From the IMG/VR virus record IMGVR_UViG_3300033997_000406, positions 1 through 64,000 of that record: a DNA stretch of 64,000 nt, one strand, 5' to 3'. The position numbers and the translations under genes were made by a program. The notes below the pieces were generated by a model. The model had not been told where the DNA came from. It worked only from the letters and a program-made list of their open reading frames with translations, and did no database searches. Shown piece after piece: positions 10,247 to 20,327 of this stretch. Every line of letters starts with the position of its first letter. Positions within the stretch are counted from its first letter, which is position 1. The stretch is from a virus.

Positions 10247-10423
10247 GTGAAGCAAAGCGAATTCAGGCGCTGGCTGGTAGCTCAAGGGGTAGAAATGAAA
10301 AATGGTAAGAAACATTTGAAACTCTACTACAACGGCCAACAGTCAACAATGCCAAGGCACCCAAGCCAAGAAATCGGGGAAGGCCTCAGAAAGGCCATAC
10401 TCAAACAGCTTGGATTAGAATAA
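10247..10423 (+). CDS. hicA: HicA toxin (58 aa, not in ORF track)
   Basis: GGAGG RBS; MKQSEFRRWLVAQGVEMKNGKKHLKLYYNGQQSTMPRHPSQEIGEGLRKAILKQLGLE; two ACATTTTTGTTTACT operator-like repeats upstream. Confidence 0.92.
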   Translation: MKQSEFRRWLVAQGVEMKNGKKHLKLYYNGQQSTMPRHPSQEIGEGLRKAILKQLGLE

Positions 10424-10476
10424 AAGTGAGCCCCTGAAATGGGGCTAGCTTTATCGCAAAGCGGAGCAACAGAACT

Positions 10477-10887
10477 ATGAAATATCCAGTAACTATACTT
10501 GAAGATGGGAACGGCTATATGGCCACATTTGCTGATATACCAGAAGCACTAACAGCTGGCGATACTTATCAGGAAGCTCTTGATAATGCAGCCGATGCAC
10601 TGGTAACAGCCTTTGAATTTTATTTTGAAGATGGAAGGAAAATACCCTTACCTGCAGAGACAAAAGCCGGTGAATTTGTCACCGTGCCGGTCAGCTTGTG
10701 GTCTAAAGTTTTACTCTTGAATGCAATGGTAGAAAACAAAGTAACTCAAGCGGCTTTGGCCGAAAAAATGGGGCTGTCAAAACAAAGCTTTCAACGTATT
10801 GTGGATGTGAGACATGCAACTAAAATTGATATGATCGACGCAGCGCTAAACGCGCTTGGAAAACGACTTGAGCTGACAGCAGCTTAA
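10477..10887 (+). CDS. hicB: HicB antitoxin
   Basis: YPVTILEDGNGYMATFADIPEALTAGDT plus C-terminal HTH. Confidence 0.93.
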   Translation: MKYPVTILEDGNGYMATFADIPEALTAGDTYQEALDNAADALVTAFEFYFEDGRKIPLPAETKAGEFVTVPVSLWSKVLLLNAMVENKVTQAALAEKMGLSKQSFQRIVDVRHATKIDMIDAALNALGKRLELTAA

Positions 10888-10922
10888 GTACAATAGCCCC
10901 GGTCGTGCCGGGGCTTCTCATT

Positions 10923-11537
10923 TTAAAACTTTATTGCCTGTACCAACCTCTCAGAATCCGACATAAACGTACTCAGATAGTGATCTGTTGACGACAAAGA
11001 CGCCTGCCCTAAACCATCCCGAACCTGATGAATAGACGCCCCATTATCAACCAAAGCCTTAGCAAACGCTTTTCTCATACTGTGCGTTGATAGTTGATAA
11101 TCCAGGCGCAACTCAGCAGCAACCGTCTTTAGTATCTGATTCACATGCTGACAAGTGTAAGGCTTGCCTGGCCGCACACTGCTTTCAAAAATAAGAGCTT
11201 TACCGTGATTCAAATGCTCTGCATCTTCAATAACCGCCTTACACTGATCCGTCAGGTAAACAGTCAATTTAGCCACCCGCTTAGCCTCTGCCTCACTCTT
11301 GCCAGCCGTTATAGATTTTGCGTAAATCTTAGACTGAATTATGATGACCGAGCTTCTAATTACACCGTTAATATACAGCTCTTTAAAGGTGAGTTTTGAT
11401 ACATCACAAAACCTTAAACCGCTCAAACAACTAAATTCCAACATCAATGCAATGATGGGGTTTTTCTGATCCACCAGCTGCAGTATTTTGCGCATTTCCC
11501 TCAAATCCTTAGGGGGATAAGCTAGTCTGCCCGACAT
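10923..11537 (-). CDS. Small tyrosine recombinase (resolvase-like, catalytic domain only)
   Basis: GLRFCDV, HSMRKAFA, LGQAS...TDHYL catalytic motifs. Confidence 0.9.
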   Translation of the reverse strand: MSGRLAYPPKDLREMRKILQLVDQKNPIIALMLEFSCLSGLRFCDVSKLTFKELYINGVIRSSVIIIQSKIYAKSITAGKSEAEAKRVAKLTVYLTDQCKAVIEDAEHLNHGKALIFESSVRPGKPYTCQHVNQILKTVAAELRLDYQLSTHSMRKAFAKALVDNGASIHQVRDGLGQASLSSTDHYLSTFMSDSERLVQAIKF

Positions 11538-11556
11538 TGTTGCTTTTCCTTATATA

Positions 11557-11886
11557 TCAATCAAATATGGCTTGAATTCTGGCAAGAATATCCACCAGCA
11601 AGTCCGGTTCCACAGCATCAGTCTTAACCGCCCTATTGGCTGCTAAGTTTATTGTAAATGGCTGCCCGCAGTTGACGATCCCTGATGTAATACTGGTAGT
11701 GAGCCCGCCGCGTGCTTCAACGAAAAAGCCATAACTTTGATGATTAATCTCCCTGTTTATGGGGCAAACGATAGCAAGCTTAGTGGATTCATTAAAAGCT
11801 GTTGCCGATACAACCAGCACATACCTGTCACCAACCAGCGACGATTCACCTTGCTGGGGCACCCTATAAATATCACCTTGCTTCAC
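11557..11886 (-). CDS. PemK/MazF-family toxin
   Basis: QGDIY...R.VLVVS...FN..TKLAIVCPI. Confidence 0.88.
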   Translation of the reverse strand: MKQGDIYRVPQQGESSLVGDRYVLVVSATAFNESTKLAIVCPINREINHQSYGFFVEARGGLTTSITSGIVNCGQPFTINLAANRAVKTDAVEPDLLVDILARIQAIFD

Positions 11887-12125
11887 GGCTTAATCTCCAC
11901 TGACTGAGCAACTTCCCAACCTTCAACGCGAGGCAGGCAGCCTGACATTTCAGCAATAAGATCATCCAACTTATAGCGAGGTCTACTTTTCGCCTCAACG
12001 GTCATTTTTGCACCATCCAGCTGCAACTTCACCTTGGAGCCATCACCAAGGGAGTTCTGATCAATAAAAGCCTTTGGGACAGTCATCACTAACGAACCGC
12101 CAGCCTTTCTTAATGTTTGCCACAT
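11883..12125 (-). CDS. AbrB/MazE (PemI)-family antitoxin
   Basis: LRKAGGSLVMTVPK...RPRYKLDDLIAE. Confidence 0.9.
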   Translation of the reverse strand: MWQTLRKAGGSLVMTVPKAFIDQNSLGDGSKVKLQLDGAKMTVEAKSRPRYKLDDLIAEMSGCLPRVEGWEVAQSVEIKP

Positions 12126-14262: not shown

Positions 14263-15069
14263 TTGGCTAAGATCACTCTAAAAGAGCTGACTGAAACACG
14301 TAATTTGTATGATCAGGTGATTAACGACCTGAAAGTCAGATTTAAAGACAATCTCATTTATCAAGAAACGACTTCAACGGGCGCTACGCGGCGGCCGTTG
14401 TTTTATGTTGCCTCTCAAAAGCAGCTGGATGATGTAAAATCCACAATTCACCGGCTGCAACAGCTCGCTAATGAAATCCGCACCCTTGCAGGCAGTGACG
14501 TTCGCCTGAATATGCCTATCCTTGAAGAGGGTGTGCTGCTTTATCGAATCTGGCTAAATACGGCACACGCCAGCTCAAGCTCAAGCACAACTACTCGCGT
14601 TGAAATCATTGAGCGCATCAAAAGACGTATAGAGTCTGTTGAACGCTACGGCGATTCACCAACCCATACAGCCCTTATGGAGCAGCTGCAGAAAGAACTT
14701 AGGTTCTTTGAAAATGAGACTGAAGTTAGTTACCGCTCTCGTTCTATGGGACACCCAGTTACCACTGTTGGTATATCCAAAATCCACGGAATAGATGGTA
14801 AACAACTACTGAACGATGCAGGCATGTACATTGTTGGCACTGACTTTGAAGTACCTCGCGGTGAAACACCCGATAGTAAGAATAAAAAGCAGCGCAAAAA
14901 GCGGGTAAACATCTTTGACGAACTAACGCCTGTCGAGTACAGCGGATCGACAGCATTGCTTTACAGAGAAAGCGAAGTGGAGGCCCGTAAACAAGCAATC
15001 GGCTTTACGGCGGAAAAACAGAAGCAGGTCGTTGCAGAAAACCGCACCAGCAAAAAGAAGCGCGATTAG
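14263..15069 (+). CDS. c1: Primary repressor, P1 C1-like
   Basis: Collinear similarity to recalled P1 C1 (GATRRPLFYV; YRSRSMGHPVT; IFDELTP...LLYRESEVEARK; basic tail); convergent with pacB as in P1. Confidence 0.7.
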   Translation: MAKITLKELTETRNLYDQVINDLKVRFKDNLIYQETTSTGATRRPLFYVASQKQLDDVKSTIHRLQQLANEIRTLAGSDVRLNMPILEEGVLLYRIWLNTAHASSSSSTTTRVEIIERIKRRIESVERYGDSPTHTALMEQLQKELRFFENETEVSYRSRSMGHPVTTVGISKIHGIDGKQLLNDAGMYIVGTDFEVPRGETPDSKNKKQRKKRVNIFDELTPVEYSGSTALLYRESEVEARKQAIGFTAEKQKQVVAENRTSKKKRD

Positions 15070-15683
15070 CCATCTAACGCGCTCTGAAATTGCGGTCGAC
15101 TGTATAAGCGGGCCAGATACAGCCTTAGTGGCTTTAAGGCCCGCGCTTTTGATTCAACCCCTATATCAGGCAGACGCCACATTAAAGCCGCTATAAAGCA
15201 ATCCAATGCACTGACTTCATCTGACAGCATATAACGCTGCTCACCTAATGCTGAGGCTAATTCGGTCATTGCATCCACCAGCTGCCGCCTGGCCTGTGCC
15301 GCCCCTTTGCCTTTGGCCAACACTTCCTCAGCTGCAGGGATAAATATGTGCTGAAACCGGTGCAACATCAGTTTGATTGTAGCCTTAGCACCAGCACCTT
15401 TTGTAACGGGACCAGGCAAATACAAACTAGGCTCCGGATAGCGCTCATCCAGATAATCCGCAATAATCAGCGCATCAAACAGCATGGCGTCATTTCTGAC
15501 ACTCAGCATAGGTAGTTCACGGGTAGGGTTAAAGCTCAGCAGCTCAGCAGGTAATCGGCCGGGCTCCATTGGCACCAGCCTGTAAGTTAGTCCTTTTTCC
15601 CTCAGCATCAGCCGGATAGCATGACTTCGGATACAGCCAGCGTCATAAATGGCGATGGGTGATTTATCATAGATTTTAGCCAC
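15066..15683 (-). CDS. sspA: Stringent starvation protein A homolog (GST fold)
   Basis: RSHAIRLMLREKG, NPTRELPML, IIADYLDERYPEPSL, SDEVSALDCFIAALMWRLP, RLYSRPQFQSAL; AGGAG RBS. Confidence 0.88.
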   Translation of the reverse strand: MAKIYDKSPIAIYDAGCIRSHAIRLMLREKGLTYRLVPMEPGRLPAELLSFNPTRELPMLSVRNDAMLFDALIIADYLDERYPEPSLYLPGPVTKGAGAKATIKLMLHRFQHIFIPAAEEVLAKGKGAAQARRQLVDAMTELASALGEQRYMLSDEVSALDCFIAALMWRLPDIGVESKARALKPLRLYLARLYSRPQFQSALDG

Positions 15684-15697
15684 TTTGTATACTCCTG

Positions 15698-17218
15698 TTA
15701 GCTATCAAGCCAGTCGGCCATTTCATCGGCTGCAGTGTCGTGATCTGCATGATCCGATTCGTAGTTATGCGGTACATAGTCAATCAACTGAGTGAAACAG
15801 TACGTGTCAGAGCGGTCAGGCGAGGGGATTTGCAATTTTGTGCGCATGATTTCTTTTTTCATCATCAACCACAGGCCCGATTCATTCATGGACACAGGCA
15901 GCTTAGAAAACTGGTCTATTGTTTTGTTATCGCTATCCAGGCCCATACGTCCCGTCAGAATTGCTGCCTGAGTGTATATGTGCGCCATTGCCCGAAGGTT
16001 AACGAATCTACGCTTAGCCGCTGGCATTTTTGGCGGGAAACCCCACCGAATACGGATAACGGTAAAATCGGGCGCCAGCTCGGACACATGGCTATGCACT
16101 TGATGGCCAGCACCATCGCCGTCTATCGCTATGGTGATATTTGGGTATTGGCCACTACAGCACTCGGCAACAATGCGGCGGCAGAACACGGCCGGATCAA
16201 TATCAGCTGGCATTTCCAGCAGCCGGTGATTGACGACAACCCGCTCTGGCCCAATTGGTCCTGATACCCGGCTAATGTTTATGACAGACCTGTCACGACC
16301 ACCACCAACGTCTATCGTTGCCACCCACCCCCAATCAGCGCCAAGCTTCTGTGCAACAGCGCGTCTGGCTGCTGCAGTAGCTGCCGCTTGAACATCATCA
16401 CGGCCAAGCAGGTAGGCCGACATATTGCGAGGGAAGCAACCCAGTACTTTGATTTGAAACTCAGGACTATCGAACCCGCCATACTCTTTGAGCTTGTCGA
16501 TAATGAATTGCTTGGTGACGTGCTTAGACAGGGCAGAGGACATCGTAATAGAGTGCCAGGTGCCATCTGCTGACATCTTAATGCTAAGGTCATGGTGCGT
16601 TCGGTAAAAGTAACCACCTACACGGGTAGGCTGTGACAGCAGTAGTACTCGGTTATCTTCTGATGTTTGGGCGCCCATGATGACGCCAAACGCTCTGTCG
16701 TTAACACCTGAGGCCTCATCGACAATGGTAAGCATGTGGTCGGCGTGTTCACCGGCTAATGACTCTTCCTGATTTAAGCGGAAGCCTTTAGGGCTGACAT
16801 ACCAGATACCTTTACTGGTACGTTCAAAGAAACTGCTCTCAGTCAGTACAAAATAGTTGGCTATCCAGGGGAACCGGCGCTGCAGTGCCTTAAAGTGTAT
16901 TTTTAGGTTTTTCCAGACCGCATCCATGACCTGGCGTATTTTGTTGGCGATGATGACAACCCGCCCCCCAGGGTGCAGAATCATAAATATGATAATCATC
17001 GCAGCGGTAAGGAAAGACTTGCCGGTACCATGGCCAGAACTGACTGAGGTTCTGCTACCGACCTTACTCACGTTATCCAGCACTTCGCGCTGCTGGAAAT
17101 CTGTCTCAATACCTAATAGTTCAGCACAAGCCAAGTCCCAATCGGCATCGTATCTTCTTATTAGGTCGAGGTAGCGAGGATCACTGACGATACTCAGGAT
17201 GCGCTTTTTGCCACTCAC
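15698..17218 (-). CDS. pacB: Terminase large subunit
   Basis: SGHGTGKS Walker A, IVDEASG, ID.GGGRD, SPDRSD nuclease motifs. Confidence 0.92.
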   Translation of the reverse strand: MSGKKRILSIVSDPRYLDLIRRYDADWDLACAELLGIETDFQQREVLDNVSKVGSRTSVSSGHGTGKSFLTAAMIIIFMILHPGGRVVIIANKIRQVMDAVWKNLKIHFKALQRRFPWIANYFVLTESSFFERTSKGIWYVSPKGFRLNQEESLAGEHADHMLTIVDEASGVNDRAFGVIMGAQTSEDNRVLLLSQPTRVGGYFYRTHHDLSIKMSADGTWHSITMSSALSKHVTKQFIIDKLKEYGGFDSPEFQIKVLGCFPRNMSAYLLGRDDVQAAATAAARRAVAQKLGADWGWVATIDVGGGRDRSVINISRVSGPIGPERVVVNHRLLEMPADIDPAVFCRRIVAECCSGQYPNITIAIDGDGAGHQVHSHVSELAPDFTVIRIRWGFPPKMPAAKRRFVNLRAMAHIYTQAAILTGRMGLDSDNKTIDQFSKLPVSMNESGLWLMMKKEIMRTKLQIPSPDRSDTYCFTQLIDYVPHNYESDHADHDTAADEMADWLDS

Positions 17219-18348
17219 TCGGATTCACCGCCATCAGTGAATAGCTCGCTGTCGTCGCTGATAGTTTCCTTAACCTCACCAACCTGACCGCTTTCCTCAA
17301 GGATTTGCTTAAGCCAGCCCTCTCGCTCTTTCCTAAAACTCTCATCTTCTTGTTGGCGATTTTTCTTCGCTGTGGCTCTGGCCTCTGCCAGTTCTTCCTC
17401 AGTAACGCCGTTTTCATCCGGTTCTGGCTCAGCTGTCTTAATCTCTTTTTCCGCTTCCATCAGCAGTAGTTTTGGCGGCTCTATACCTTTGGACGCAAAC
17501 AGGTGACAGGTATCAACGGCTGTTAAATTCTCCTGGCTTCGCTGCATCAATATGGCGGCTGTTAACTCAACCACTTCTGATTTAGTCATAGCGCTGATGT
17601 CGCGGCGGTTCTTCTCAATAGATACTGTCTTTTCCTCTACCAGTACCAGCTGACTCATTAGTCGGCTAAATGGCTCAATACCGGAATACTCCACTGACTC
17701 CATTGCTTCAATCAGAGTCATTGGCTCCTGGCGCTCTTCACCATCAGGGCCGATATAAGTCCGGGTTAACTTATTTCCCTTCTCATACATATCAGCAATG
17801 CCATTCATCCGATCACGGCGAATGCGGCTCATGCCTAATATTCTGGTCTTTAAAATCCGGCCCATATCGGATAGGTCTAAATCGTCCGGCTCCATTTCAA
17901 GATCCAGAGACGACATAACAGAGCTATAGCCGCCGTGCTTCATTGCTGCGGTATTGCCTTTCGTAAACGTGCGGGTTCCGTTCGGTCTTGTTTCCACATT
18001 GGGGCGGCTATTGATCGTAATATTCGTTTTTGGTATTTGCGTCGTCTTTTGGCTCCCCACCTTTGCAGTGGTGCGGCGCGCATCTGTGTGCGTGACCTGA
18101 TCAGGTGCCTTGCTTTTTGTTTCCTTTTTGGGTTTATCTAATGCAGCCTTTGTGGTTGGCTTTGTCTTTTTGTCTGCTTTTTTCGGTGGGGTTTCTTGCG
18201 ATTTAGATTGGCTATAAGTTGCCAGCTCACGCCTGAAACTGTTTGGATTCAGGCCGTTGCTCTCGCAATAGTCGCGGCGAGCAGCTGCAGAAGTATCCTG
18301 TAAACTCAGGAATTCAGCACAGTGCTTTTGCCAGTCGATTTTTGCCAA
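17215..18348 (-). CDS. pacA: Terminase small subunit
   Basis: N-terminal HTH, GNTAAMKHGGYS motif, overlaps pacB start. Confidence 0.85.
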   Translation of the reverse strand: MAKIDWQKHCAEFLSLQDTSAAARRDYCESNGLNPNSFRRELATYSQSKSQETPPKKADKKTKPTTKAALDKPKKETKSKAPDQVTHTDARRTTAKVGSQKTTQIPKTNITINSRPNVETRPNGTRTFTKGNTAAMKHGGYSSVMSSLDLEMEPDDLDLSDMGRILKTRILGMSRIRRDRMNGIADMYEKGNKLTRTYIGPDGEERQEPMTLIEAMESVEYSGIEPFSRLMSQLVLVEEKTVSIEKNRRDISAMTKSEVVELTAAILMQRSQENLTAVDTCHLFASKGIEPPKLLLMEAEKEIKTAEPEPDENGVTEEELAEARATAKKNRQQEDESFRKEREGWLKQILEESGQVGEVKETISDDSELFTDGGESE

Positions 18349-18353
18349 AGTTA

Positions 18354-18370
18354 TTTATCCTAACAGTTAA
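18354..18370 (+). promoter_or_regulatory. 17-bp repeated operator overlapping pacA RBS
   Basis: TTTATCCTAACAGTTAA. Confidence 0.65.
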
Positions 18371-18396: not shown

Positions 18397-18556
18397 TGAT
18401 CAGCTCAACCTGATCACTGATCAATTTACTATTGAGCGCTAAACTGATCAGTTAGGCTGTGATCAAACGGCGGGCTATTTATTGATTACGCTAAGGATTG
18501 GTGCGGCTTCTGGCGTGATCAGAGCTACTGATCACGCCGCAAATAGATGTTGATCA
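18397..18556. repeat. Putative pac site: eight TGATCA hexamers (5+3)
   Basis: TGATCA at 18397, 18411, 18418, 18445, 18460, 18516, 18529, 18551; P1 pac uses clustered Dam-methylatable TGATCA/G hexamers. Confidence 0.8.
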
Positions 18557-18565
18557 GATACGCAA

Positions 18566-19171
18566 TTAAGGCTTGAACTCTTGGGGCATGGTCTGCCCTT
18601 TTGGAAGATTCCAGTACTCTAAAAAGGCGCACAAGGCGGCTTGCAGCCCATAGGCGAATACAACGCTATACCCTTCCGCCCTCAGCTCAGCGGCCACCTT
18701 CAACTGCTCAGCTGACGGCTTGCCGGTCATTGTTTTAATCTCCACCCTCAAGCCATGGTAAGCGCCTCGGGCCGCGTCTAATGTCGTATCAGGATAACCA
18801 GCCCTCTGCCCCTCTGACTGCATGATGAAAGCAGTTAGCTTTCCCCGCTTGCCGCTATTGGGTGTTGAGTGTGTCAGTCTGTATATGGCAGGGTGATCAC
18901 TTTCCAAAATCCAAAACAGCTCAACCTGTATAAAATGCTCTTCATTGCCTTTCATCAGCTCCGGATTTTTTTTCAGGCGAGCTAACTCTCTGGCATGTGG
19001 TGAAACTTTCGTACCGCTACGAGCTTTTGCAGTCGCTTTTGGCTTTGATGCTTGCTGAAGGCTGTCGATCGGATTTGATGACCGGCTAGCACTTTTCTGG
19101 CTGACCTTTAAGTGCTTATTGCCGTTGATCAGCTTCTGATAATCTTCCTCGCTGTACCGTAAACCATTCAT
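18566..19171 (-). CDS. VRR-NUC domain nuclease
   Basis: EHFIQ...HSTPNSGKR...G.RAGYPD...GLRVEIK...Q..LRAEGY. Confidence 0.85.
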   Translation of the reverse strand: MNGLRYSEEDYQKLINGNKHLKVSQKSASRSSNPIDSLQQASKPKATAKARSGTKVSPHARELARLKKNPELMKGNEEHFIQVELFWILESDHPAIYRLTHSTPNSGKRGKLTAFIMQSEGQRAGYPDTTLDAARGAYHGLRVEIKTMTGKPSAEQLKVAAELRAEGYSVVFAYGLQAALCAFLEYWNLPKGQTMPQEFKP

Positions 19172-19172
19172 G

Positions 19173-19928
19173 CTATCGGCCTTTATGCTTTCGGTGCTGC
19201 TTAACTCTGCTGGCCAGCTCTCGTTTGTAATCACCGTACCGCTTCATTATCTCTTTGAAATGAGCGGCCAGCTCTGGAAAAGATGGCTCACTCATAAAGT
19301 GCTCGCCTAAATCTTTAATGTCAGCCAGGCTCTGCTCTGAGGCCAAAGCCCCGGATGATTTAACACTGAGCAGCTGCAAACCCTCGTTGACCGCCTCAAT
19401 AATATCCTGCTTCTTATGGGCCATTATCTTTGTGGCCAACTCTTCTTTTTGCGGCTTGGTCAGCGGTATGCGGGCGCCAGACTGAGCCACCACTTGGCCC
19501 TGACTTTCAAAAATCACCTGAGCTTTGCCGGAGACTTCCAGCAGCAAATACGCACAGTAAGGCGTGGTGTTATATGGCTCAGCCAAGAACTCTGTGCTGG
19601 TACTTAGCAGGATGACATCTAACTTTTCGTCTACGGTATAGATTGGCTCACGCTGCAGCAGCTTGTTTACTTCAACAACATAGGCCCACTTCTGGCGGGT
19701 TCTTTGTAAGTCTGCAAATTGCGCTGACATCAGTTTGGCGGTTTTGTCGTTATGATTTTCGTGCGATTGCACTACGCTGGCCATCTTATCCATGGCCTCT
19801 GACATATCTGCAACCAGCTGAGATAAACGCTGATTATCCTCTGAAAGCGATTTACTCTTTTCTGTTAAATCATTGATTACCAGCTGCTGCAATGCAAACG
19901 CGTCAGCACCATTTGTTGTGTCGCTCAC
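19173..19928 (-). CDS. Hypothetical coiled-coil protein
   Basis: 251 aa ORF in operon. Confidence 0.6.
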   Translation of the reverse strand: MSDTTNGADAFALQQLVINDLTEKSKSLSEDNQRLSQLVADMSEAMDKMASVVQSHENHNDKTAKLMSAQFADLQRTRQKWAYVVEVNKLLQREPIYTVDEKLDVILLSTSTEFLAEPYNTTPYCAYLLLEVSGKAQVIFESQGQVVAQSGARIPLTKPQKEELATKIMAHKKQDIIEAVNEGLQLLSVKSSGALASEQSLADIKDLGEHFMSEPSFPELAAHFKEIMKRYGDYKRELASRVKQHRKHKGR

Positions 19929-19937
19929 TTCTTAACC

Positions 19938-20327
19938 TCAATCATGCTTGTTAATCTTAGAGTCCTTATAGAACTCACTGACAGACTCACCCATTCGCTT
20001 ATCCAGATCGGCTTTGCGCTGTGCCTCTGTCATGCTTAGATGTTTTATTTGCTGGCGCTGCTGCCTATATGCCGCTTCAGCTTTGACTATCCGACCACGC
20101 AACAACTTGATAATCCCAACCGAATGGCGCAAATCCACGCCAGAACCAAAGCACTCAATACAGTCCAGCTGGTGCAGTAAACCGGTTGTTTTACCCACCC
20201 CCTTACACGCCGTACACAAGGGTACTGACGATATATCAGGACCATCGACCAGCAACACCTGCTGAACTTCTCTTGGTTCCAGAGCGCCTATGCCCTTGCG
20301 TGGCACTATCTTTGATTTTTGGCTCAA
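19938..20327 (-). CDS. Zinc-finger protein (CxxCxGxG twice)
   Basis: CTACKGVG...CIECFGSG. Confidence 0.65.
   Translation of the reverse strand: MSQKSKIVPRKGIGALEPREVQQVLLVDGPDISSVPLCTACKGVGKTTGLLHQLDCIECFGSGVDLRHSVGIIKLLRGRIVKAEAAYRQQRQQIKHLSMTEAQRKADLDKRMGESVSEFYKDSKINKHD

Follow-up and report, generated by a model that had tools for sequence, protein, structure and literature searches.

The textbook example of a phage that relies on the polymerase-bound co-activator SspA is P1, which takes it from its host, and the locus studied here raises the question of what a relative of P1 does with an SspA-like gene of its own, placed directly behind its terminase genes. SspA proteins have a non-enzymatic GST fold, without GST activity, and dock on the sigma70 holoenzyme (at sigma70 region 4 and the beta' zinc-binding domain, ZBD), often together with a DNA-binding partner. 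To our knowledge, the growth of P1 is supported only by close SspA orthologues, and a literature search on this requirement found nothing. P1 late transcription is reported to require both host SspA and the phage protein Lpa (PMC1891329, PMC11228462), and the accounts cited here describe SspA-type factors acting at promoters with a poor -35 element (PMC11228462, PMC9304144).

An SspA-like gene between pacB and a c1-like gene

The window analysed is a stretch of 64,000 nt (positions 1-64,000 of the IMG/VR record IMGVR_UViG_3300033997_000406) from a phage designated G000. The replicon is complete, 84.4 kb in size, and its source is a subsurface metagenome. Its PacA/PacB terminase and the virion, dar and partition (par) modules collinear with those of P1 place it, as a distant member, among the P1-like phage-plasmids, with P1 homologues for 32 of its 128 ORFs (E<=1e-4) and the P1 order kept. 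The best plasmid matches of its PacB are Aeromonas phage-plasmids (52-53% identity), from which a gammaproteobacterial host is only a guess. No tRNA genes were found in the 64-kb window, and a sigma factor (Pfam Sigma70_r2) was found neither in G000 nor in a second complete phage, G001, so that the phage must use the host holoenzyme. The stretch is present in four subsurface-metagenome sequencing runs, all of one study and two of them possibly its source, with no RNA dataset among the runs listed as containing it. Relatives around 85-89% identical in nucleotides are contained in two wastewater runs labelled RNA-Seq and marked as probably DNA, and the contig of one of these runs that covers the pacA-pacB-sspA-like junction is not evidence of a transcript.

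The genes at the locus are the following:

14263-15069, plus strand: c1-like convergent gene, 268 aa, located as c1 is in P1; it ends in a 4-nt overlap with the stop of the sspA-like gene
15066-15683, minus strand: sspA-like gene, 205 aa, GTG start; SspA-family GST fold, with PEP replacing PHP (E84 corresponds to E. coli H85)
15684-15697, minus strand: spacer between pacB and the sspA-like gene, 14 nt; Shine-Dalgarno AGGAG at 15696-15692, 8 nt before the GTG at 15683
15698-17218, minus strand: pacB, large terminase, 506 aa; identity 46-47% to P1 PacB over 500 aa and 71% to that of G001
17215-18348, minus strand: pacA-like small terminase, 377 aa, TTG start; matches to phrog_1711 and phrog_370; 48% identical to the G001 gene

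The stop codon of pacB is TAA (15700-15698, minus strand). The sequence and the profile matches confirm the original prediction of a full-length SspA-family gene, served by an AGGAG site, 14 nt behind pacB and in the same orientation. The absence of sspB beside the gene was also confirmed, with no match to Pfam SspB in either of the two phages, as was the absence of sspA from P1 (none in two records). The order pacB, sspA-like, c1-like is thus unlike the chromosomal layout of E. coli, in which sspA-sspB lie downstream of rpsI. The claim that the gene abuts c1 held in part: a convergent ORF does overlap its stop, but the identity of this ORF with C1 is remote, with a BLASTP E of 0.013 against P1 C1 and no match of the phrog_1678 profile to the 268-aa protein. 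Linking the ORF to P1 C1 through an Aeromonas phage-plasmid protein gave E values of 6e-5 and 1e-8, and hhalign against C1 gave a probability of 79% (E 1.6e-5).

The G001 locus has the order pacA-pacB-sspA-like, the latter encoding a protein of 195 aa, 39-41% identical to that of G000, with a convergent c1-like gene next to it. The same pacB/c1-like junction carries the sspA-like gene in both complete phages.

The protein belongs to the SspA family

By sequence and by fold, the 205-aa protein belongs to the SspA family. Its Pfam domains are GST_N_3 (1.1e-12) and GST_C_2 (8e-5), and the NCBIfam SspA profile NF007016 matched it with an E of 1.1e-40 and 139.3 bits over profile positions 16-200 of 209 (139.6 bits in a six-frame search), the second-best NCBIfam family being FzlA with 35 bits. 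The curated equivalog cut-off of NF007016 is 314 bits, and at 139 bits against this value the protein is, as judged by the profile, not an SspA orthologue. The ten best PDB sequence matches were SspA-family chains (E 2e-32 to 3e-25), with the best non-SspA GST at 3e-9. Identity to E. coli SspA is about 34%, and the range for the E. coli and Yersinia pestis proteins is 32-34% over nearly the whole length.

An AF2 model of the protein (pLDDT 91.6) was compared with known structures by Foldseek. The chains listed down to rank 28 were SspA-family entries, with the exception of the Y. pestis GST homolog 4g9h at rank 26. Through rank 23 the TM values were 0.79-0.83, and the MglA-SspA chains of Francisella had 0.75-0.77. 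The two-domain GST fold is shared with E. coli and Y. pestis SspA (1YY7, 7C97, 7DY6, 6WMU; TM 0.81), and the matches include the E. coli RNAP-SspA complexes 6WMU and 7C97. The label of an ESM Atlas match was 'SspA family, Pseudomonadota'. In a quick tree of 86 rows, with an unresolved backbone, the protein falls inside the SspA radiation, split from two GST outgroups by a 100* branch. PDB E-values, tree and Foldseek agree in that the protein does not cluster with ordinary GSTs, the outcome that would have counted against the family assignment first proposed.

The RNA polymerase contact surface is largely kept, with an acidic residue at its centre

For E. coli SspA, Wang et al. 2020 give R65, R82, F83, P84, H85, P86 and Y92 as RNAP contacts, and report that the PHP motif, in the alpha3-alpha4 loop, touches sigma70 region 4 and the beta' ZBD (PMC7515715). 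In the same account SspA is a dimer whose two protomers bind sigma70 region 4 and the beta' ZBD through the same PHP surface, and H85A alone weakened RNAP binding (PMC7515715).

Five of the six conserved contact residues are retained in the G000 protein, namely the equivalents of R65, R82, F/Y83, P84 and P86. The change of PHP to PEP that had been predicted was confirmed by the alignment, in which P83-E84-P85 stands in place of PHP and the flanking R, F/Y, P and P are retained. Further differences from E. coli and Y. pestis SspA are the absence of the C-terminal tail with the conserved Glu204 and the phage-borne location behind pacB with no sspB. The G000 protein and P0002 share a 5-residue insert after the PEP motif.

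The G000 protein is one of a clade of seven, in which R63 is kept in five members, P83 in six, and R81, Y82 and P85 in all, with Gln as the R65 equivalent in the G001 subclade; no other stretch is as conserved across the clade as the block 'DYLxERYPEP'. At the position of His85 the clade has Glu in six members and Asp in one, in such a manner that 7/7 are acidic, versus 0/63 among canonical SspAs (H 51, Y 5, F 3, Q 2, other 2). On this alignment, the acidic residue is a fixed derived change and not decay. Because H85A alone impaired the binding of E. coli SspA to RNAP, an acidic residue at 85 could abolish, rather than retune, the binding to sigma70 region 4.

In the G000 protein, P0002 and P0003 the residue heading helix 1 is Cys, and in four of the seven clade members it is Ser or Gly; Cys is found at the same position in 21 of the 63 canonical SspAs. 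The G-site and catalytic residues, when compared, did not set the clade apart from canonical SspAs and were dropped as an argument.

A long-branched clade with no comparable case found among catalogued phages

The clade is long-branched within the SspA radiation, with a stem of 1.11 changes per column. Four of its seven members have their genes on contigs of 57-85 kb, and the gene for the P0044 protein is on a contig of 84,339 bp. Among 1.84 billion representatives, the closest cellular-type SspAs are 36-41% identical to the protein. The original prediction that the phage had captured the gene, taken to mean a recent copy of a host gene, was not borne out, given this distance and the long stem shared with six other proteins having the acidic residue, and on sequence grounds a recent capture from the host is not supported. 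Between G000 and G001 the sspA-like proteins are 39.5% identical; the median is 46%, and of the 58 proteins shared, 15 have a lower identity. The gene diverges faster than most phage genes, which we counted against a role as RNAP helper.

The sspA-like gene was found in none of the 79 other PacB-related IMG/VR loci. The 11 loci matched in a search of genome contigs (26-41% identity) were all unrelated GSTs of Nitrobacter and Microvirga, and a search of metagenome contigs gave no match above 37% identity (27 loci). Among 50,697 phage records there were four matches, all of 31-35% identity, comprising two annotated as bacterial sspA, one under a Salmonella strain name and one unannotated record of 2.7 kb, and on this annotation and naming they were taken to be bacterial DNA. 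BFVD had no match at E<=0.001, and a literature search found no phage-encoded SspA. Among catalogued phages, therefore, we found no such case of a phage-borne SspA.

On other mobile replicons, an SspA-family gene is carried by Pseudomonas megaplasmids of about 400 kb (e.g., NZ_CP138358, 'glutathione binding-like protein'), and 117 of the 144 plasmid records with a match are from Pseudomonas. However, the megaplasmid protein retains the PHP motif, its identity being 41% with E. coli SspA and 30% with the G000 protein, and its gene lies in another part of the tree, not in a phage and not beside terminase genes.

Lpa and the P1 late-promoter box were not found

In P1, lpa belongs to the same transcription unit as pacAB. 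That no lpa could be recognised had been noted for the region upstream of pacA, and this now extends to the whole G000 genome, where BLAST gave nothing better than E=1 and the Lpa profile phrog_1704 had no match. The profile matched P1 only, in one of four records, with no match in G001 or in the Aeromonas phage-plasmid. The -22 box of P1 late promoters occurred at chance level with each of two patterns (0 versus 1.2 expected, and 4 versus 3.5 expected). Among 80 PacB-related phage loci, 17 have no BLAST-detectable Lpa within 3.5 kb on each side of pacB; an sspA-like gene is present in only one of these 17, and the 16 others have neither in the 3.5-kb flanks.

G000 is a P1 relative (PacB 46-47% identical) in which the pacAB unit would include an SspA-like gene as that of P1 includes lpa, and whereas P1 has Lpa and no SspA, G000 has the SspA-like gene and no detectable Lpa or -22 box. 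Because there is no Lpa, no -22 box, and 16 loci without either Lpa or an sspA-like gene, the Lpa/SspA logic of P1 may not be transferable to G000.

Two DNA elements lie at or upstream of the start of pacA:

18356-18366, plus strand: copy of the dispersed motif TATCCTAACAG, core of a conserved element of about 28 bp; touches the pacA start
18397-18556, no strand given: TGATCA cluster, candidate pac site, eight hexamers in the spacer that precedes pacA (5 + 3, separated by about 50 bp)

A similar TGATCA cluster is found upstream of pacA in G001. The TATCCTAACAG motif has 11 copies in the window versus 0.18 expected, and a syntenic copy is present in G001. The conserved element precedes most operons and has no conserved -35. 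The copy at pacA is on the strand opposite to the gene, and its complement provides the AGGA of pacA; the motif faces the 'wrong' way here and in front of two further genes. Judged by its orientation, the motif would fit a repressor operator better than an SspA-dependent promoter. The conserved TATCCTAAC element is a candidate promoter or operator. A candidate AP2-type partner gene was rejected, being a single 13.6-bit match, below the cut-off, in a 29-codon frame.

Possible roles of the phage SspA

That a P1 relative has a diverged SspA of its own suggests that the phage brings its own transcription helper. We tentatively favour, as a reading that may be right, a phage-made accessory factor of RNA polymerase with changed partner specificity. 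It builds on a protein of the SspA family, encoded at a position conserved in two complete phages, with most of the contact residues retained and with no Lpa, SspB or sigma factor detected. The -35-less element ahead of most operons would suit such a factor, given the reported action of SspA-type proteins where the -35 is poor (PMC11228462, PMC9304144). The sspA-like gene would be co-transcribed with pacA-pacB, and its product would bind the host RNA polymerase, replacing or joining host SspA, by which phage transcription would become independent of the SspA variant of the host. The clade-wide change of His85 to Glu or Asp would shift which partners the protein recognises, be it on the polymerase side or toward a phage DNA-binding partner standing in for Lpa, and the effect would be exerted on phage promoters.

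A more specific version is speculative and on balance unlikely: the lineage would have replaced phage Lpa and borrowed SspA by its own SspA paralogue, alone or as a heterodimer, making a phage-specific 'subunit' of the sigma70 holoenzyme in which His-to-Glu is the specificity determinant and which steers the polymerase to the phage's -35-less element heading most operons. The Francisella system of MglA-SspA and PigR offers a likeness, in that its SspA-family chains match the model of the G000 protein, but it is chromosomal and only 22-23% identical to that protein, with no counterpart of ppGpp or PigR identified for the phage. MglA is described as a diverged paralogue beside the housekeeping SspA, acting as a quasi-subunit of the sigma70 holoenzyme at poor -35 promoters (PMC1891329, PMC9304144).

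The same family behaviour could serve interference with host SspA, an explanation that we consider rather unlikely, in which the phage protein would dimerise or compete with host SspA and disable or retarget it. A dimer face with His changed to Glu would no longer grip sigma70 region 4 or beta', and the stress programme that the host runs through SspA would be silenced or rerouted while the phage grows or is carried as a plasmid. Such a role would agree with the use of the PHP surface by both protomers of the reported SspA dimer (PMC7515715), with the reported existence of SspA-family heterodimers such as MglA-SspA (PMC1891329, PMC9304144), with the acidic residue that in all seven clade members replaces a His embedded in the sigma70 groove, and with the fold remaining otherwise intact in AF2 and Foldseek. 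The conservation of R81, Y82, P83 and P85 is, however, unexpected for a surface merely switched off. In a constructive form of the same idea, the heterodimer would be productive, as that of Francisella MglA with SspA.

It is improbable that the protein is a GST-fold protein unlinked to RNA polymerase, whether an enzyme of redox metabolism or detoxification or a module that binds another target, carried as an accessory 'moron' at the pacB/c1 junction. The failed SspA equivalog cut-off and the helix 1 Cys of the G000 protein, P0002 and P0003 would allow it, as would the crystallisation of some SspA homologues with glutathione (from the titles of 4QQ7 and 4HOJ) and the recruitment of other GST-fold proteins to unrelated partners, such as FzlA. 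Yet the Cys is Ser or Gly in the majority of the clade and is also found among canonical SspAs, the nearest relatives by sequence and fold are all SspAs and not enzymes, and the block that the clade conserves best is the P-x-P surface specific to SspA. Very improbable is a role as immunity partner, modulating the C1-like repressor of the convergent neighbour in the manner of P1 Lxc or Coi, since the adjacency of the two genes in both phages (4-nt overlap in G000, 10-nt gap in G001), their equal divergence (39-40% identity between G000 and G001) and the absence of a BLAST-detectable lxc homologue are offset by the convergent arrangement, which precludes co-transcription, and by pacB lying directly against c1 in P1 and the Aeromonas phage-plasmid, so that the adjacency may only mark an insertion point; we know of no SspA-family protein that binds a repressor.

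Returning to the accessory factor of RNA polymerase, a P1 relative that encodes a diverged SspA means that a phage can carry, and not only borrow, this co-activator. Its clade is a natural experiment on the interface between SspA and the polymerase, mostly conserved and with the central His turned acidic, and the SspA-like protein is a concrete candidate for the missing late regulator of many Lpa-less P1-like phage-plasmids.

An SspA-Family Protein Encoded Beside pacB

The region around the pac genes and the other features discussed here are listed below.

Features in the window (coordinates, strand, description)
10247-12125: two apparent toxin-antitoxin pairs, as read from their translations, of 58 + 136 aa (plus) and 80 + 109 aa (minus), flanking a 204-aa integrase-like gene
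14263-15069, convergent with the sspA-like gene: C1-like gene, 268 aa
15066-15683, minus: sspA-like gene, 205 residues, GTG start
18356-18366: copy of a dispersed element at the pacA start, in the orientation opposite to pacA
18397-18556: TGATCA cluster
18566-19234, minus: 222-aa gene upstream of the pac region
19938-20327, minus: 129-aa protein, phrog_5085 (function unknown), with a pair of CxxCxGxG-like cysteine motifs

The product of the sspA-like gene carries the GST N-terminal and GST C-terminal domains of Pfam, and its top NCBIfam model was SspA (1.1e-40, 139 bits across almost the full profile, far below the equivalog cut-off of 314 bits), with FzlA as the runner-up at 35 bits. A sequence search of the PDB gave SspA-family proteins as the top ten chains (E 2e-32 to 3e-25), ahead of ordinary GSTs, which began at 3e-9, and BLASTP showed 34% identity to E. 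coli SspA. An AlphaFold2 model built from a 70-row alignment (mean pLDDT 91.6) was compared by Foldseek, and the chains listed to rank 28 were all of the SspA family but one, a Y. pestis GST homolog at rank 26, with TM values of 0.79-0.83 through rank 23 and of 0.75-0.77 for Francisella chains; the RNA-polymerase-bound E. coli SspA (6WMU, 7C97) was among the matches. Grouping with ordinary GSTs, which would have counted against the original prediction, was not seen, SspAs being the top matches in both the PDB sequence and Foldseek searches. The protein is a member of the SspA family, not an SspA orthologue.

The pacB stop (TAA, 15700-15698) is followed within 14 nt by AGGAG (15696-15692), placed 8 nt ahead of the GTG, and conservation of the N-terminus among relatives supports that this start is right. 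No terminator-like site was found between both genes, which are probably co-transcribed. At the other end, the sspA-like stop shows a 4-nt overlap with that of the convergent gene, so that the abutment on c1 in the original prediction stands as to position, but the C1 identity of the neighbour is remote: its protein had no PHROG or Pfam match, was not reached by phrog_1678 (P1 C1), and aligned collinearly with P1 C1 at E 0.013 and with an Aeromonas C1-like protein at E 6e-5. The latter matches P1 C1 (E 1e-8) and phrog_1678 (2.6e-19), and profile-profile comparison of the 268-aa protein with C1 gave 79% probability. From these alignments and synteny, it is likely a remote C1 homologue.

A Restricted Insertion in a Distant P1-Like Replicon

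The whole IMG/VR virus record (G000), whose first 64 kb make up the window, is 84,431 bp long, with 127-bp terminal repeats, a G+C content of 47% and a rating of complete, and the window's stretch was present in four subsurface-metagenome runs, all from one study. By tblastn (E<=1e-4), 32 of its 128 naive ORFs matched P1, in P1 order, including mat, prt, pro, darB, ulx, darA, hdf, lydB, S, R, 16, bplA, pmgA, sit, pmgB, tub, pmgC and others; the names come from the P1 gene table, and matches to P1 48-86 kb were left unnamed. An Aeromonas salmonicida phage-plasmid matched 31 of the ORFs, and a second complete IMG/VR phage, G001 (85,032 bp), matched 68, with a PacB 71% identical. Relatives about 85-89% identical over 14263-18348 (c1-like, sspA-like, pacB and pacA) were also found in 2025 wastewater metagenome contigs, and the lineage is therefore not restricted to subsurface samples. 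The integrase-like gene and the 129-aa gene are conserved in G001 (67% and 42%), the latter with a copy of the dispersed element directly at its start.

G001 has the same local order, namely pacA, pacB, a 195-aa sspA-like gene (39-41% identical to the window's) and, convergent with it, a 273-aa gene that shares 40% identity with the 268-aa one. By contrast, P1 and the Aeromonas plasmid have no gene separating pacB from the convergent c1 or c1-like gene that it abuts. Of the PacB-related IMG/VR loci, the 80 best were compared over 3.5 kb on either side of pacB where the contig was long enough, and only G001 itself carried an sspA-like gene. The gene is thus an insertion at the pacB/c1 junction that is restricted to one small lineage. 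Its identity between both phages is 39.5%, against a median of 46%, and 15 of the 58 shared proteins are lower; since insertion, its divergence has run somewhat ahead of that of the lineage's median gene.

Relatives and the Polymerase-Contact Surface

A word-indexed search of 5.8 billion clusters gave 496 candidates, four of them at E<=0.001: the query itself and proteins with 88%, 60% and 41% identity. An exhaustive HMMER search of 1.84 billion representatives yielded 1,098 proteins at E<=0.001, 211 at <=1e-10 and just 2 at <=1e-30. In a comparison set of 159 sequences (153 relatives from these searches, numbered P, and 6 added), the position of the E. coli PHP motif read PHP in 103, PYP in 16, PFP in 6 and PEP in 7, the rest having other states or no regex match. 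The PEP rows were the query, its identical database copy P0001, P0002, P0003, P0005 (called "RNA polymerase-associated protein" in one source), P0006 and the G001 protein.

Removal of 14 sequences (P0001 and 13 with lengths outside 170-260 aa) left 139 P rows. A quick IQ-TREE analysis was run on 86 rows, made up of the first 80 of these and the 6 reference rows. The query grouped with P0002, P0003, P0005, P0006, G001 and P0044, whose motif reads Y-D-P, in a seven-member clade (SH-aLRT 91, unstarred) whose stem measures 1.11 changes per column. This clade sits within an otherwise unresolved SspA radiation, divided by a fully supported branch from two GST outgroups. Contigs of 57-85 kb carry four of its members (G000, 84,431 bp; P0006, 84,929 bp; P0044, 84,339 bp; P0002, 57,468 bp).

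In the SspA dimer as reported by Wang et al. 2020 (PMC7515715), R65, R82, F83, P84, H85 and P86 of one protomer form the contacts with sigma70 region 4, where His85 fits into a shallow groove and is buried there. In the second protomer, R65, R82, P84, H85 and Y92 touch the beta' zinc-binding domain. Single alanine changes, including H85A, weaken binding. The residues were mapped on the 70-row alignment plus E. coli SspA.

Contact residues of E. coli SspA and their counterparts (query; clade members; remarks)
R65: R63; 5/7; Gln in the G001 pair
R82: R81; 7/7
F83: Y82; 7/7; Tyr also in 23/63 canonical sequences
P84: P83; 6/7
H85: E84; Glu 6/7, Asp 1/7; acidic in 0/63 canonical sequences (H 51, Y 5, F 3, Q 2, other 2)
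P86: P85; 7/7
Y92: varies even within canonical sequences

DYLxERYPEP is the best-conserved block of the clade. Right after it, the query and P0002 have a 5-residue insert, where pLDDT drops, and the C-terminal tail of canonical SspA is missing from the clade. We read the pattern as a surface maintained with a changed centre, suggestive of altered specificity more than of loss.

Absence of Lpa and Control of the pac Unit

The Lpa family, phrog_1704 as identified with P1's own Lpa, was found in P1, but G000, G001 and the Aeromonas plasmid gave no match, with concordant BLAST results, so that no lpa is detectable in the phage; the absence of sspB held as well, since neither SspB nor sigma-factor region 2 was found in G000 or G001. 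A search for an AP2-type partner gene was negative, and no SspA-family gene was found in P1 or the Aeromonas plasmid. The -22 box derived from eight annotated P1 late promoters was no more frequent in the window than expected by chance (0 matches where 1.2 were expected, and 4 where 3.5 were expected). The position of lpa in P1 is occupied here by the 222-aa gene, which matches phrog_2363, phrog_824 and a Holliday-junction-resolvase PHROG and looks like a VRR-NUC-type nuclease.

Among the 80 PacB-related loci, tblastn gave an Lpa-like match in 63 and a C1-like match in 70. The 17 loci without BLAST-detectable Lpa within 3.5 kb on either side of pacB include the Aeromonas type, the closest after G001, so late control that does without Lpa may be common in the distant P1-like phage-plasmids.

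The pattern TATMMTAACRG occurs 11 times in the window (5148-60266) against 0.18 expected, and a slightly wider pattern 14 times in the whole genome, one copy being intragenic. TATCCTAAC is the core of a dispersed conserved element of about 28 bp without a conserved -35 region. In both phages the element heads most operons, some copies reading with the gene and others against it. In G001, 12 copies of TAT(C/A)(C/A)TAACGT were found at syntenic sites (mat-like gene, c1-like region, pacA, rep leader, portal/darB, lyd-dar and baseplate genes). At pacA and two other minus-strand genes the element opposes the gene, and its complement provides the Shine-Dalgarno AGGA. With copies facing both ways, an operator, perhaps one bound by the C1-like protein, is favoured over a uniform promoter; given the copies ahead of late-type operons, it may instead be an activator site. 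In both cases, the pacA-pacB-sspA-like gene run starts with the general control element of the phage, as the lpa-pacA-pacB unit of P1 starts with a C1 operator.

Immediately upstream of pacA, 160 bp of the spacer contain eight TGATCA hexamers, five in one group and three in another about 50 bp away (34 in the window against 16 expected). A similar cluster precedes pacA in G001. The arrangement resembles the pac site of P1, which is rich in Dam sites and there lies within pacA.

Other Carriers and Possible Function

The query matched four of 50,697 phage records by tblastn (31-35% identity): two annotated with bacterial sspA, one entered under the name of a Salmonella strain, and one unannotated of 2.7 kb. 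On these grounds we take them as bacterial DNA. In the plasmid collection 144 records matched, all below 60% identity and 117 from Pseudomonas; among the matches listed, no P1-like phage-plasmid appeared, and the Pseudomonas plasmids were megaplasmids of about 400 kb with a PHP-type SspA-like gene. One of these genes, in Pseudomonas putida plasmid NZ_CP138358 (373193-373789), has PHP intact and is 41% identical to E. coli SspA, and is annotated just as "glutathione binding-like protein". BFVD gave no match at E<=0.001. A full-text literature search found no report of a phage-encoded SspA, the nearest case being the SspB of Pseudomonas phage pf16. The SspA family itself is known; the carrier is new, and a key residue is changed.

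According to PMC1891329, PMC11228462 and PMC9304144, proteins of the SspA family hold sigma70 on the core polymerase and work where a promoter has a poor -35 element, often paired with a DNA-binding partner, such as Lpa (P1) or PigR (Francisella). We tentatively favour that the phage makes its own SspA-type polymerase factor, so that its transcription would not depend on a compatible host SspA. The acidic residue in place of the buried His could also belong to a protein that interferes or heterodimerises with host SspA, which we consider unlikely. A GST-fold protein without connection to the polymerase is rather less probable beside the SspA structural matches and the retained contacts. That it modulates the adjoining C1-like repressor, a reading based on their adjacency in both phages, seems very improbable. 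With a phage-borne polymerase factor, the Glu switch (H85 to E84) would set its specificity.
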